A DNA stretch of 64,000 bases. Source: Gammaproteobacteria bacterium (GTDB taxonomy: Bacteria > Pseudomonadota > Gammaproteobacteria > CAJXQU01). Made by a program: the position numbers and the translations under genes. Within the stretch, counting starts at the first letter, position 1, and every line of letters begins with the position of its first letter. Shown here one piece after another: positions 34,713 to 59,799 of the stretch. The stretch lies in the NCBI GenBank assembly GCA_965238175.1, contig CBDEGZ010000003.1, positions 1,120,001-1,184,000 of the forward strand, in the 5' to 3' direction. The notes beneath the pieces were generated by a model. It was not told the DNA's origin. It searched no databases and was given only the letters and a program-made list of their open reading frames with translations.

Positions 34713-34809
34713 ACCTGATGTGATGGTCTCCTCCCCCTTACGGCATGTAAGTGTCATGATTGAACCGTCATCAACACAATCAAAAGAGGAGAAGACCATC
34801 AAATCAGGT
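34713..34809 (+). mobile_element. 97-bp miniature element related to the left end of the IS1111-type element, with 22-bp terminal inverted repeats
   Basis: 34716-34798 matches IS positions 50729-50811 at 75/83 nt; ends ACCTGATGTGATGGTCTCCTCC / GGAGAAGACCATCAAATCAGGT (20/22 complementary). Confidence 0.85.
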
Positions 34810-49914: not shown

Positions 49915-50009
49915 TTATTAGTTGTTAATTTATATATTCTACCTTGTGAGCTGTCGACTATAAAGCGCACTCTGATAATAATTGGGATAATGACAGTGAA
50001 CCAATCATG

Positions 50010-50620
50010 TAAGACATTCTTAGCTTTTGTAATTCTTATTTCTTTGTTAGGAGGTACTTGGTGATTGAATAAAAATCAGCCCGAGAAATAGGTTGAATTA
50101 CAACAGATATTGTCGATTTTGGTTGAGGTGACTAAGGTCACTAAAGAGGATGTACAGCTTAGTAGCAAGGTAACGGGTGTTTAGTATTTGCACAACGTGC
50201 AAAATTACATTGTGAAATTTCTGAACAGGTGTTAAAGCGCAATGTAGAACTAGGTTAGTAAGGTAACATTAAACGATCAACCAATCCGTATTAATGTAGG
50301 TGAGTATGAAGATGTGCTTAGCGAAATGCAGATCAAAATATGATCAATAAAAAGTGGTAATTTGGAAGAGATCAAAAATTATTTGATATCGTCGAGTGAC
50401 AAATCACATTATTCCAACACGAAGTAAATTGGTAATGAAAGAGTTTAAGAAATAATCCTTAGTTTCGCAGTCAAAAATCGACGAAACTCATCGTCAATCA
50501 CGGTGCGATCAAAAATTACGTTTTATGGGATGAGTCGATCGTATTTGTATGATCTGGCTGATGAGACAAAGCGACAGCTAATGCAAATTCCGGGTGTTGT
50601 TGGTGGTAGAGAGGTTGGGA
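50010..50620 (+). pseudogene. Heavily eroded gene remnants, possibly an RND efflux adaptor plus transporter
   Basis: Stop-interrupted reading FLAFVILISLLGGTW*LNKNQP...ILVEVTKVTKEDVQLSSKVTG, and LYDLADETKRQLMQIPGV. Confidence 0.35.
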
Positions 50621-50813
50621 GTTATGGTTTGAAGTTGATCCACACCTGGTCTTTATCTGAGCCTTTAGACATACAAAACAGGCCATTTTTTATAAAAGCA
50701 AAAGTATTAGTCACAATTTAACTTAACCTGATGTGATGGTCTCCTCCCCCTAACGGCATCTAGGTGCCATGATTGAACTGACATACACACAATCAAAAGA
50801 GGAGAAGACCAAA

Positions 50814-51827
50814 ATGAAGACTACAACAATCGGGTTAGACATAGCAAAAAACGTATTTCATGCTGTCTGCTGTAATCAACAAGGGCGTATAATCAAAAAG
50901 AAAATGTTAAAGCGAGCGCAGGTACTCTCCTTTTTTCAATCTCAACCTCCTTGTTTAGTCGCAATAGAATCTTGTGCAACGTCACAGTATTGGGCCCGAG
51001 CGATACAACAACAGGGACATCAGGTGAAATTACTACCACCTCAGCATGTTAACGCATTTCTAATCGGCAATAAGAATGATTATAACGATGCCTTGGCCAT
51101 CGCCGTTGCTGCGAAACAACCTCATTTAAAAAGTGTGGGCATTAAATCAGTTGAGCAACAAGACAACCAGGCACAACATAAAGCAAGAGACTTAGCGGTC
51201 AGACAAAGAACCGCATTATGTAACCAAATGAGAGCGCTTGTTGCAGAATATGGCATTAGCCTTCGTCCCGGCCTAAATACCCTACGTCAATCTATCCCGT
51301 TGCTATTAAGTGATGAGAACGAACGGTTGTCCGTTACTTTCAAAAGGATACTGCGCCAGCTAAAGGAACAATGGCAATCACTTGATGCCTGTATTGCGAC
51401 ATTTGACCAATTGATCATTCAATCGGCAAAAAACAATGCGATTTGCCAACGCTTACAAACTATTCCAGGGTTTGGGCCGATGGTCTCGAGCGCGTATTTT
51501 AATGAAGTGGGAAACGGCGCTCATTATCACAAAGGGCGCGATGTGTCCGCCTCATTAGGACTTGTTCCACGACAGTACAGTAGTGGTGGTAAAGAGGTGC
51601 TACTGGGGATCAGTAAACGCGGCAATAAATACCTTCGTTGTTTGTTAATTCTAGGCGCGAAGGCCGTGGTATCAAGAGCCAAAACGAAAGGCGATAAACT
51701 GAGTCAATGGATTAATCGTTTAGTTGAGACGCGGGGGCATAATCGAGCGTGTGTGGCGTATGCCAACAAAATGGCAAGAATGGCCTGGGCTATAACGGTT
51801 TCTGGTGATGACTACTCACCGGCCTAA
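50814..51827 (+). CDS. IS1111-type DEDD recombinase/transposase
   Basis: IGLDIAK, AIESCA, KNDYND and YSSGG; GAGGAG RBS favours a start at 50814. Confidence 0.95.
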   Translation: MKTTTIGLDIAKNVFHAVCCNQQGRIIKKKMLKRAQVLSFFQSQPPCLVAIESCATSQYWARAIQQQGHQVKLLPPQHVNAFLIGNKNDYNDALAIAVAAKQPHLKSVGIKSVEQQDNQAQHKARDLAVRQRTALCNQMRALVAEYGISLRPGLNTLRQSIPLLLSDENERLSVTFKRILRQLKEQWQSLDACIATFDQLIIQSAKNNAICQRLQTIPGFGPMVSSAYFNEVGNGAHYHKGRDVSASLGLVPRQYSSGGKEVLLGISKRGNKYLRCLLILGAKAVVSRAKTKGDKLSQWINRLVETRGHNRACVAYANKMARMAWAITVSGDDYSPA

Positions 51828-52057
51828 ATAGAGAGAACAAATCATTTCAACGAATTGCGAAGGTAAAACTAAAGATGGCATAACAGGTCAAACCAGCCTA
51901 TTGAAAACCTGTCGAGCTCAGGGGTAACTAATACCGATAACCTGATAAGGAAAATAGGCGCGTAATACATCCAGGTCAGAAGTTGAAAACTTCATTGAAG
52001 GCCGTATATATGACAGCAATCCTGTCCCTGTTATCTGAATGTTTTATCTTGCAATAC
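51828..52057 (+). ncRNA. Predicted seekRNA/bridge RNA region of IS1111 copy 1; exact ends unknown
   Basis: Stem GCCTATT/AATAGGC encloses target-matching GAGCTCA and TAACCTGA; donor-matching ACATC and ATATATGA follow. Confidence 0.8.
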
Positions 52058-52083
52058 GGGAGGAGACCATATATGAGATCGGT

Positions 52084-52983
52084 TTAAGCCACGGTTGCTA
52101 ATGCCCGTTTTAAGTAATTAAATTCATCGCCAGACAAGTTCAAAGACGGCTTATTCTCTTTCAGACAATAAGCGATCAATCCACCGATAAGATTAAGCAT
52201 AAAACCATGTACAGAGCGGTGTCTGGAATGTTCTATCTGAGTAATGTTCTTCAACTGGTCATTAATGGTTTCAATAATAAAACGTCTGCTCAGCATGGCT
52301 CTGTCCCAGAGCGATGTAGCTTTTGCCTTCATGTTTTTTCGAACATTTGTCACCAACTCCACGCCTTTATCAAACAATTCGCTCGATAAGGCTTGGCTGA
52401 TATAGCCCTTATCCCCGTAAAGTTTGCCACTCATCGCCTTGCACAGCTCGGGAACAGGCTGACGGTCATCGATATTTCCCGGGGTGATTTTGGCTGCCAG
52501 GATATCCCCCTGATGATTGGTGATAAGGTGTAACTTGAAACCATAAAACCAACCCATTGTGCCTCGACCTCGCTGGGCGATGTCTTTGAAAACACGGTGG
52601 CGTGGAATACGGAGGTTGTGGCACACTTTTAAGGCGGTTGAATCAACAAACGCAACACCTGTGGGTTTCCCTTTAAGATAAGAAAAGTAGCTACATAAAG
52701 GAACGAGCACTGTCGGCATCACCTCCAGAAACCGCGTGTAGCTTAGCATCTGTGGAAAATCCTCGGCATAGAATTGAGCGATAAACCCTTTGTAGTAGTT
52801 CTTGAAATCGCGATGGTTGGAGTGATGAAACAGGATGATGATAGTCATGATTTCGCTGGCTTGCATTCGCCCAACTCGACGGCGTTTGCGTTGCCCATCG
52901 GTCAGTAATTGTTGTTCCCACAACGGTATGAAGTGCTGACAGAAGTCATCGACATCACAAAAGATTTCAACTAGTTTATCCAT
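52084..52983 (-). CDS. IS982-family DDE transposase
   Basis: IFCDVDDFC, FVDST, GWFYGFKLH, YGDKGY and RFIIETINDQLK motifs. Confidence 0.93.
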   Translation of the reverse strand: MDKLVEIFCDVDDFCQHFIPLWEQQLLTDGQRKRRRVGRMQASEIMTIIILFHHSNHRDFKNYYKGFIAQFYAEDFPQMLSYTRFLEVMPTVLVPLCSYFSYLKGKPTGVAFVDSTALKVCHNLRIPRHRVFKDIAQRGRGTMGWFYGFKLHLITNHQGDILAAKITPGNIDDRQPVPELCKAMSGKLYGDKGYISQALSSELFDKGVELVTNVRKNMKAKATSLWDRAMLSRRFIIETINDQLKNITQIEHSRHRSVHGFMLNLIGGLIAYCLKENKPSLNLSGDEFNYLKRALATVA

Positions 52984-53106
52984 TGGCTTGTTCTCCTTTT
53001 TTTTCAATTGTTTGGTCACAATTGATCTGATCGGGGGACAAGCCGTTAGTTCATTTCCTTAAGCCGAGTTGGGGTTAACTTAATAGAAATTGATAAAATC
53101 ACAGGC

Positions 53107-53141
53107 AAAAAAAAGCCTGGCAATAAATGCCAGGCTTTTTT
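53107..53141 (-). terminator. Intrinsic terminator of the cold-shock gene
   Basis: AAAAAAGCCTGGCA-loop-TGCCAGGCTTTTTT. Confidence 0.85.
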
Positions 53142-53159
53142 ATGTAATTGAAGGAAGTT

Positions 53160-53363
53160 TTATACTTTCGTCACATTACTAGCTTGTGGACCTTTGGGAC
53201 CATCTTCAACGTCGTAAGAAACTTCGTCGCCTTCACCAAGGCTTTTGAAACCGTCGCCTTGAATTGCAGAAAAATGTACGAATACATCTGTGCTGCCATC
53301 AGCTGGTGAAATAAAGCCGAAGCCTTTTGAATCGTTGAACCATTTAACACTGCCAGTAGCCAT
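53160..53363 (-). CDS. Cold-shock protein (CspA family)
   Basis: [13 protein letters not shown] and [12 protein letters not shown] motifs. Confidence 0.96.
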
Positions 53364-53685
53364 GTAGAATTACCTCTTAAATAAACAAAAAATAAATCAA
53401 TTGCGGTTTAGCGAGGTAATACACAGGAGATGCCTTCCTGGAAACTTCTGAAACCTATTAAAACGTGCAATCAAACTTGTATAGCAGTCAATATCACTAT
53501 TTATAATACAAAATATAAACCACTAACACATATATTGTAGACCTATCTGGCCCAAGATCAAACATTTAGTACGACTATTTACTTTTCTTATAGGTAAAGT
53601 TTGTGAACAATTCAACATAAATTGCCACCAATAATCATAAATTTACCTCATTGTAGGTATATGGCTTGGCTATTTGGAGTGTGTA

Positions 53686-58183: not shown

Positions 58184-58303
58184 AAGTTTTGAGTTTAGAG
58201 GAATCTCAAAGGGAGCTTTGCACGAAATGAATAAGAGTTCAAAAAAGTATGCTGTTAAAGTTTTGCAGATAACTTATCCTGAGTTCATATATGGTCTCCT
58301 CCC

Positions 58304-58533
58304 GTATTGCAAGATAAAACATTCAGATAACAGGGACAGGATTGCTGTCATATATACGGCCTTCAATGAAGTTTTCAACTTCTGACCTGGATGTATTACG
58401 CGCCTATTTTCCTTATCAGGTTATCGGTATTAGTTACCCCTGAGCTCGACAGGTTTTCAATAGGCTGGTTTGACCTGTTATGCCATCTTTAGTTTTACCT
58501 TCGCAATTCGTTGAAATGATTTGTTCTCTCTAT
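58304..58533 (-). ncRNA. Predicted seekRNA/bridge RNA region of copy 2
   Basis: Reverse complement of 51828-52057. Confidence 0.8.
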
Positions 58534-59547
58534 TTAGGCCGGTGAGTAGTCATCACCAGAAACCGTTATAGCCCAGGCCATTCTTGCCATTTTGTTGGCA
58601 TACGCCACACACGCTCGATTATGCCCCCGCGTCTCAACTAAACGATTAATCCATTGACTCAGTTTATCGCCTTTCGTTTTGGCTCTTGATACCACGGCCT
58701 TCGCGCCTAGAATTAACAAACAACGAAGGTATTTATTGCCGCGTTTACTGATCCCCAGTAGCACCTCTTTACCACCACTACTGTACTGTCGTGGAACAAG
58801 TCCTAATGAGGCGGACACATCGCGCCCTTTGTGATAATGAGCGCCGTTTCCCACTTCATTAAAATACGCGCTCGAGACCATCGGCCCAAACCCTGGAATA
58901 GTTTGTAAGCGTTGGCAAATCGCATTGTTTTTTGCCGATTGAATGATCAATTGGTCAAATGTCGCAATACAGGCATCAAGTGATTGCCATTGTTCCTTTA
59001 GCTGGCGCAGTATCCTTTTGAAAGTAACGGACAACCGTTCGTTCTCATCACTTAATAGCAACGGGATAGATTGACGTAGGGTATTTAGGCCGGGACGAAG
59101 GCTAATGCCATATTCTGCAACAAGCGCTCTCATTTGGTTACATAATGCGGTTCTTTGTCTGACCGCTAAGTCTCTTGCTTTATGTTGTGCCTGGTTGTCT
59201 TGTTGCTCAACTGATTTAATGCCCACACTTTTTAAATGAGGTTGTTTCGCAGCAACGGCGATGGCCAAGGCATCGTTATAATCATTCTTATTGCCGATTA
59301 GAAATGCGTTAACATGCTGAGGTGGTAGTAATTTCACCTGATGTCCCTGTTGTTGTATCGCTCGGGCCCAATACTGTGACGTTGCACAAGATTCTATTGC
59401 GACTAAACAAGGAGGTTGAGATTGAAAAAAGGAGAGTACCTGCGCTCGCTTTAACATTTTCTTTTTGATTATACGCCCTTGTTGATTACAGCAGACAGCA
59501 TGAAATACGTTTTTTGCTATGTCTAACCCGATTGTTGTAGTCTTCAT
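58534..59547 (-). CDS. IS1111-type DEDD recombinase/transposase
   Basis: Identical translation to copy 1. Confidence 0.95.
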   Translation of the reverse strand: MKTTTIGLDIAKNVFHAVCCNQQGRIIKKKMLKRAQVLSFFQSQPPCLVAIESCATSQYWARAIQQQGHQVKLLPPQHVNAFLIGNKNDYNDALAIAVAAKQPHLKSVGIKSVEQQDNQAQHKARDLAVRQRTALCNQMRALVAEYGISLRPGLNTLRQSIPLLLSDENERLSVTFKRILRQLKEQWQSLDACIATFDQLIIQSAKNNAICQRLQTIPGFGPMVSSAYFNEVGNGAHYHKGRDVSASLGLVPRQYSSGGKEVLLGISKRGNKYLRCLLILGAKAVVSRAKTKGDKLSQWINRLVETRGHNRACVAYANKMARMAWAITVSGDDYSPA

Positions 59548-59799
59548 TTTGGTCTTCTCCTCTTTTGATTGTGTGTATGTCAGTTCAATCATGGCACCTA
59601 GATGCCGTTAGGGGGAGGAGACCATCACATCAGGTTAACTTAAGCAATTCAGATCTGGAGAAACATCTGGCAGAAGCTACACGGTTCCGTTGTTTCGTGG
59701 ATTTAAGGTTAATCATCGAAATGGGTTTATGGCGTTTAATCACTGTCTTGTAAAGTGTTTATTAGTATTTTCATGTCAGAGTCTGTTCTTAAGTCCATT

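Follow-up and report, generated by a model that had tools for sequence, protein, structure and literature searches.

This locus raises the question of whether the non-coding DNA behind a transposase gene encodes an RNA that specifies where the element inserts. The window, i.e., the whole 64,000-nucleotide stretch analyzed here, represents C3:1120001-1184000 of a 3.35-Mb genome, and a sequence-only reading of it had proposed an element-encoded guide RNA with a target and a donor module. The proposal is supported, as structure covariation, guide-flank covariation and site occupancy agree. We put at about 0.9 the probability that this is an IS1111-type element of the IS110 family, whose 3' non-coding region encodes a two-loop bridge/seek RNA specifying both the target and the element's own ends. 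This reading draws on the observed anatomy of the element, the conserved RNA structure, the way all four guide segments covary with the DNA they would read, and the choice of sites in the genome.

The element carries a gene for a DEDD transposase/recombinase of 337 aa (50814-51827, plus strand, counted from the ATG at 50814), preceded by the ribosome-binding site GGAG (50801-50804, plus strand). As expected for the IS110 family, the protein contains the Pfam domains PF01548 (DEDD_Tnp_IS110, at 3.6e-16) and PF02371 (Transposase_20, at 6.4e-20). It scores 302.8 bits (cut-off 140) against NCBIfam NF033542, 'IS110 family RNA-guided transposase', so the NCBI family model already names it an RNA-guided transposase. 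The available description of IS1111-type transposases gives the motif GL-P----S(T)G and a length of 330-350 aa (PMC11187229); GLVPRQYSSG in the translation fits the former and the 337 aa fit the latter. In a PDB sequence search, the protein matched only the IS621 and ISCro4 transposases, weakly and in the C-terminal part, the similarity to IS621 being confined to the C-terminal domain (E 2e-4).

Comparison with empty sites places the element at 50731-52075 of the plus strand (1345 bp, ATGTG...ATATG); with TGA taken as the core, it would equivalently span 50732-52076. The left target arm TAACC and the core TG (50724-50730, plus strand) lie directly left of the element, which begins with a 5-nt extension, ATGTG, and a 13-bp subterminal inverted repeat, ATGGTCTCCTCCC (50736-50748, plus strand), the same repeat being present in 61 homologues. 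The matching right repeat, GGGAGGAGACCAT (52058-52070, plus strand), is followed by the extension ATA and then by TG. Repeats of 13 bp with extensions of 5 nt and 3 nt inside the core agree with the 7-17 bp subterminal repeats and short extensions of IS1111 elements, as does a longer non-coding region downstream of the gene (249 nt, 51828-52076) than upstream (83 nt, 50731-50813).

The genome contains 25 copies of the element at 99.9-100% identity, each with unique flanks and an intact 337-aa frame, and the element is probably active or recently active. Two full copies and one 78-nt left-end remnant are located in the window. The second full copy (58285-59629, minus strand) has its top-strand guide at 58439-58448, its bottom-strand guide at 58416-58423, and the flanks TAACCTGA / ACTCAGGATAAG. 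The remnant (34719-34798, plus strand, ~90% identical) stands behind TAACCTGA and is followed by inverted TCAGGTTA; it ends in GGAGAAGACCAT, which is similar to the right repeat, and may be a miniature derivative or the product of an internal deletion. A second, diverged relative was found at C3:2357905-2358383 (L026), with 79% identity over the first ~400 nt. A plasmid search revealed no close copy; the best matches, in enterobacterial plasmids, had 70.7% identity over the guide-RNA region.

At all three sites in the window (50724-50731, the minus-strand copy and the remnant), as the sequence-only reading had it, and likewise at 24 genomic copies, the left flank TAACCTGA precedes TGTGATGG. 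The flank counts cover 24 of the 25 copies, the 25th, at a contig start, being left out; all 24 insertions with readable flanks have (T/A)AACCTGA on the left. The site of the copy at C3:589243 has 47 uninterrupted copies in the genome, which read ...TAACCTGACAGTCGG; therefore, TAACCTGA is part of the target, and nothing past TGA is duplicated. Empty and occupied sites and the left arm shared by 24/24 insertions hence display the site-specific insertion, with duplication limited to a short core, that is typical for the IS110 family. The assignment of AACCTGA to the element itself was rejected, given the 47 uninterrupted paralogous sites and the unoccupied MITE ends that carry TAACCTGAACTCGGG.

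On the other side, the right target arm AGATCGGTTTAAGCC... (52076-52097, plus strand) is the rest of an IS982-family terminal inverted repeat, and the adjoining transposase gene (52084-53019, minus strand) belongs to the IS982 family (NF033520, 279.4 bits). The near end of this neighbor reads TAACCTGA/GATCGGTTTAAGCC, where the slash marks the insertion point, and its far end, reverse-complemented, TAACCCCAACTCGGCTTAAGG; comparison of the two ends therefore places the insertion point eight bases into the IS982 terminal repeat. For the right flanks in the window, GATC and ACTC were read, exactly as had been claimed. Unoccupied TAACCTGAACTCGGGATAAGAA sites occur at the ends of a short repeat. Judging from the genomic sequence, the usual target lies at the outer end of terminal inverted repeats of the IS982 type, mostly those of short MITE-like derivatives; the earlier assignment of the target to an IS982 inverted repeat thus stands as to the type of terminal repeat, but not as to its being one IS982 copy. 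Among three close homologues checked, an IS982 gene lies beside the insertion in one (L057), and not in L032 and L037.

Several further observations concern the host genome, which is very rich in IS copies. The MITE-like repeat is ~200 bp long, has ends TAACCTGAACTCGGGATAAGAA similar to the IS982-type inverted repeat (C3:123573, 2865101, 2510100), and is the element's commonest prey; both of its ends can be occupied. Another insertion sequence, with ~47 copies, has an end TTAAACTTAACCTGACAGTCGGTTACTG (C3:5303, 11568, 129456) that contains the left target half, with 1/48 occupied. A cspA thermoregulator RNA (RF01766, 107.3 bits, gathering score 78) was found in the window at 53108-53493 of the minus strand, ahead of a cold-shock ORF (53160-53363).

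For the analysis of the non-coding region, 80 homologous loci were collected, of which 61, with 49-78% protein identity, were kept and, together with the window, gave 62 rows. Left out were L039, without a usable frame; 14 loci without a detectable inverted repeat (L038, L049, L053, L076, L080, L084, L086, L087, L088, L091, L092, L093, L103, L104); and four with spurious repeats only (L041, L095, L101, L110). The non-coding regions of the 61 homologous elements, which come from other bacteria, align over their full length with that of the window. The RNAalifold consensus of 47 non-redundant sequences is a scaffold with two internal loops (51883-52025, plus strand), as in seekRNAs and bridge RNAs, with seven helices and 31 pairs, an outer stem ACAGG (51883-51887) / CCTGT (52021-52025), and a hairpin splitting each internal loop. 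Pairing is retained in 97.0% of 1448 cells, compared with 85.8% in shuffles, and compensatory changes occur in 22 of the 31 pairs; none of 500 shuffles reached the fold in any of five measures, and pairing fell to 32-39% when the partners were slid by 1-3 columns.

The first module, predicted to bind the target (51896-51959, plus strand), is closed by the stem GCCTATT (51896-51902) / AATAGGC (51953-51959) and contains an inner stem, CCT (51908-51910) / AGG (51948-51950), and a hairpin, GGTA (51923-51926) / TACC (51932-51935), all on the plus strand. Of its helices 2-4, helix 2 (8 pairs) and helix 4 (4 pairs) show changes on both sides at every pair. The second, predicted donor-binding module (51960-52017, plus strand; helices 5-7) has the closing pairs GC (51960-51961) / GC (52016-52017), a stem GGTC (51974-51977) / GGCC (52000-52003), and a hairpin at 51979-51993 formed by GAAGTT (51979-51984) and AACTTC (51988-51993), and all 5 pairs of helix 7 show compensatory changes. 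Folding of the single sequence yielded a minimum-free-energy z-score of -2.49, with part of the fold pairing the donor guides together; because this z-score is modest and the donor guides are self-paired, the alignment fold is preferred. A scan of 50000-53500 with Rfam 15 (E <= 10) returned, apart from chance hits, the cspA thermoregulator alone and gave nothing over the guide region 51828-52076, and Rfam 15 appears to have no model for this RNA. A plus-strand scan found no sigma-70-like promoter ahead of the RNA, and shuffled sequences gave at least as many promoter and terminator calls. A weak hairpin resembling a terminator was detected at 52012-52026.

The motifs listed in the sequence-only reading, e.g., GAGCTCA (51914-51920) and ACATC (51967-51971), are all read directly at their positions. 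GAGCTCA had been taken as one of the target guides; it is the right segment, but the guide is longer, comprising the 10 nt CGAGCTCAGG (51913-51922, plus strand), the reverse complement of CC-TG-AGCTCG / CCTGAGCTCG. The complement of this top-strand target guide comprises the core, the two left-arm bases directly before it, and six right-arm bases after it. The target guide for the bottom strand, TAACCTG(A) (51938-51945, plus strand), reads in the sense of the left flank plus core and is identified by covariation. Two target guide segments for opposite strands, a feature of seekRNAs and bridge RNAs, are hence present, and their order is as published: according to the description of IS1111 seekRNAs, the segment complementary to the top strand lies 5' of that complementary to the bottom strand (PMC11187229).

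The covariation of guide segments with targets across homologues, which the sequence-only reading had named as a check, was assessed in 53 usable rows representing 46 non-redundant elements (seven loci, L055, L075, L083, L089, L090, L097 and L102, were left out for flanks that were too short, and L107 and L109 were mis-anchored). Scored against the 7 nt that follow the core on the right, the top-strand guide reaches 5.52/7 in cognate pairs and 3.12 in non-cognate ones, and the bottom-strand guide matches the left flank at 4.78 of 7 and 1.87, respectively; for each guide, 0 of 10000 permutations of the 46 elements reached the cognate value, although these p-values overstate independence, since the homologues are related. 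The guide changes are numerous and spread over several clades. In L031 (Halioglobus), for example, the flanks ...GATCTG and AGGTTA are accompanied by the guides TAACCTCAG and GATCTGA; in L032 (Colwellia), the right flank AGATCG, by the guide CGATCTCAG; and in L043, the flanks GCTAC-CG / GGGACTA, by a top-strand guide with the reverse complement CGGGGACTA and the bottom-strand guide GCTACCG. The bottom-strand guide of L034 is TAACTTGA. In L111 (43% aa identity) the bottom-strand guide match, GTAAGCG, is good, and no clear top-strand match was seen by eye. In mononucleotide shuffles of the 230-nt non-coding region, TAACCTGA (51938-51945) was found in 19 of 5000, a 10-mer with at most one mismatch from the target reverse complement in 21 of 5000 for the MITE-type target and 12 of 5000 for the IS982-type one, and both 8-mers (TAACCTGA and ATATATGA) together in 0 of 5000.

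The second loop is complementary to the joined element ends, as revealed by covariation. The donor guide (U)ACAUC (51966-51971, plus strand) is complementary to the core G and to ATGT(G), with which the left end begins; its U would face the final G of ATGT(G) in a G:U wobble. The other donor guide, ATATATG(A) (52006-52013, plus strand), repeats in direct sense the bases that close the right end, together with the core. Right ends reading ATACG have ATACG in this guide in 34/34 elements and those reading ATATG have ATATG in 22/23; left ends agree with their guide in 12/12 elements with ATGT., 45/46 with ATGA. and 1/1 with ATGGA. ATATATGA (52006-52013) occurred in 56 of 5000 shuffles, and ACATC in 1215 of 5000, i.e., by itself at the level of chance. 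The claim that the donor segments match both halves of the junction is thus borne out by covariation, which, the 5-mer being so common in shuffles, is what supports ACATC. At the first core base, the donor top-strand guide has a mismatch (GGATGTA vs. TGATGTG). The base after the core in the donor bottom-strand guide (window position 52013) is the same as the one that opens the right flank in 31 of 54 elements (60 of 10000 permutations, with kinship uncontrolled), and this may reflect a handshake-like contact, placed differently from the handshake guides of IS621.

A core of three bases, TGA, had been suggested. This holds in the host genome: all 24 right flanks have A after TG, and a TGA core is indistinguishable there from a TG core; TGA looks like a 3-bp core because every target in this genome has A, as the guide requires. 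As a family feature, the TGA core is ruled out by the variable right junction of the homologues: the base after YG is A in 14 of 62 aligned elements and not A in 48. As the element's first base is A at all left junctions (54/54 in the non-redundant tally) and the next base at the right junction is variable, the core shared by the family is at most the dinucleotide YG, and in this element it is probably TG. In the published account of IS621, the core is nearly invariant at its second base and looser at its first (PMC11208158), and the short core described here is alike in this respect (CT in IS621, YG here).

Ten of 54 non-redundant elements (L056, L058, L059, L064, L081, L082, L094, L100, L108 and others) combine a TG left junction with a CG right junction, both guides specifying CG; the reverse was found in 0/54. 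This suggests that the first core base moves together with the left arms, or else that a G:T wobble with the top-strand guide allows a TG target to be used. It is conceivable, though we are doubtful, that in this clade the first core base lies outside the exchanged region, the left arm keeping the Y of the target and the right junction that of the donor. If true, the crossover would take place at about one base (G) with a donor/target mismatch at the first core position tolerated, and these elements would offer a natural read-out of the strand-exchange position, unlike the 2-nt CT core of IS621.

Site preference in the host genome was assessed on all genomic AACCTGA sites, the next five bases being scored against GCTCG, the sequence predicted by the guide. 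Occupied sites made up 1/287 with no matches, 1/346 with one, 5/162 with two, 7/60 with three, 10/17 with four, and 0/1 with five (Fisher test for at least three versus at most two matches: odds ratio 31, p 5.6e-14). The right flanks of the 24 insertions were ACTCG (8), ATTCG (3), ACTGT (3), GATCG (2), ACTCA (2), and six others, one each; the commonest targets are hence imperfect for the guide, with ACTCG in 8/24 and GATCG in 2/24 versus the predicted GCTCG. The only perfect genomic match to the guide, TAACCTGAGCTCGGGG (C3:393937-393960), is empty; it belongs to a very small palindromic unit and faces, ~10 bp away and in inverted orientation, an occupied site of poorer match, which may or may not matter. 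For the targets TAACCTGAGCTCG, TAACCTGAACTCG, TAACCTGAGATCG and TAACCTGACAGTC, the guide model predicts that a perfect match would be used at least as well as one mismatch, and both far better than CAGTC.

Could these matches act as DNA, the internal copies of the target and of the ends serving the transposase as double-stranded accessory binding sites, with no RNA guide? If the protein required such copies, covariation of these letters with flanks and ends would be expected as well. A DNA binding site, however, would not need pairing, and the seven helices do keep theirs (22/31 pairs compensatory; 97% vs. 32-39% when slid). Moreover, one segment of each pair is a reverse complement and the other is in direct sense, as is appropriate for an RNA reading both strands and as in the published architecture, which makes the DNA-level explanation highly improbable. 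It is also very unlikely that the RNA fold is a relic whose guide no longer directs insertion in the host genome. The guide is one base off both common target classes and the perfect site is empty, as a relic might have it, but occupancy tracks the match to the guide, and the 25 nearly identical copies with intact frames and unique flanks indicate recent spread. As for the 3' structure being a terminator or an mRNA-stability element of the transposase gene, with guide-like matches arising incidentally, the terminator-like hairpin and the whole-region z-score of only -2.49 would agree with it; such a role leaves unexplained both the site preference in the genome and the loop letters that change with flanks and ends in 46 non-redundant elements, and its likelihood is negligible.

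Under the preferred reading, an RNA guiding the element to its target and recognizing its own ends, transcription of the 3' non-coding region would yield a bridge/seek RNA that has two internal loops. The target loop would hold two guides: CGAGCUCAGG, pairing with the top strand at CC-TG-AGCTCG, and UAACCUG(A), pairing with the bottom strand at TAACC-TG. The site that they would jointly specify, TAACC-TG-AGCTCG, is found at the outer end of terminal inverted repeats of the IS982 type. The joined circle ends, ...CATATA-TG-ATGTG..., would be read likewise by the donor-loop segments (U)ACAUC and AUAUAUG(A). The DEDD/Tnp recombinase bound to the guide RNA would then exchange strands at the short core, and the element would be inserted with no duplication beyond it. 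By homology with known systems, we infer the production of the RNA, its binding by the protein, and the chemistry of strand exchange. The circle junction is predicted to read ...CATATATG/ATGTGATGG... (i.e., ...ATATATG/ATGTG...). A candidate -35 box, TTGCAA (52049-52054, plus strand), in which TTGC is invariant in 47/47 aligned homologues, lies near the right end, and the excised circle would join TTGCAA, a 17-nt spacer, and TATGA/T across the junction into a putative sigma-70-like promoter facing the gene.

Comparison with the IS1111 seekRNA elements ISEc11, ISKpn4, ISPa11 and ISPst6, as far as their published description goes (Siddiquee et al., 2024, PMC11187229), shows a DEDD transposase of ~330-350 aa with GL-P----SG, subterminal repeats, a downstream non-coding region, the order of guide segments, and matches overlapping at the crossover to be common to all; the element differs in its target, the outer end of IS982-type inverted repeats, and in that its guide RNA is a predicted one. 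The IS621 bridge RNA, as described (Durrant et al., 2024, PMC11208160; Hiraizumi et al., 2024, PMC11208158), likewise has two internal loops with paired guides to opposite strands for target and donor. Unlike in these accounts of IS621 (PMC11208160, PMC11208158), the RNA here is in the right rather than the left end, the top- and bottom-strand guides come in the opposite order, and the subterminal repeats are long. The position in the right end is that given for the bridge RNAs predicted in 93% of IS1111-group elements (PMC11208160). ISPpu9 of Pseudomonas putida, by its description a multicopy IS110-family element residing in short repeated palindromic sequences (REP) with a small RNA gene downstream, resembles the present one in being multicopy and in the position of an RNA, here a predicted one, behind the transposase, but its targets are REP rather than IS ends (PMC12288879).

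The principle is not new: RNA guidance of IS110/IS1111 elements was described in 2024, this element is an expected example, and it leaves the current understanding of the mechanism unchanged. What it provides is an orthologue, whose four guide segments, ends, and natural target are readable directly from the sequence, and 25 genomic insertions plus 46 non-redundant relatives that form a natural mutational scan of guide and target. RNA-guided IS110/IS1111 recombinases are under development as programmable DNA-insertion tools. Another IS1111-family element reportedly homes to the terminal inverted repeat of another mobile element; here, unlike in that case, the prey consists of IS982-family elements and their miniature derivatives. 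The element is an example of an insertion sequence that homes to terminal repeats belonging to a different family, and homing to IS982-type repeats limits the damage to the host and may disable the prey element.
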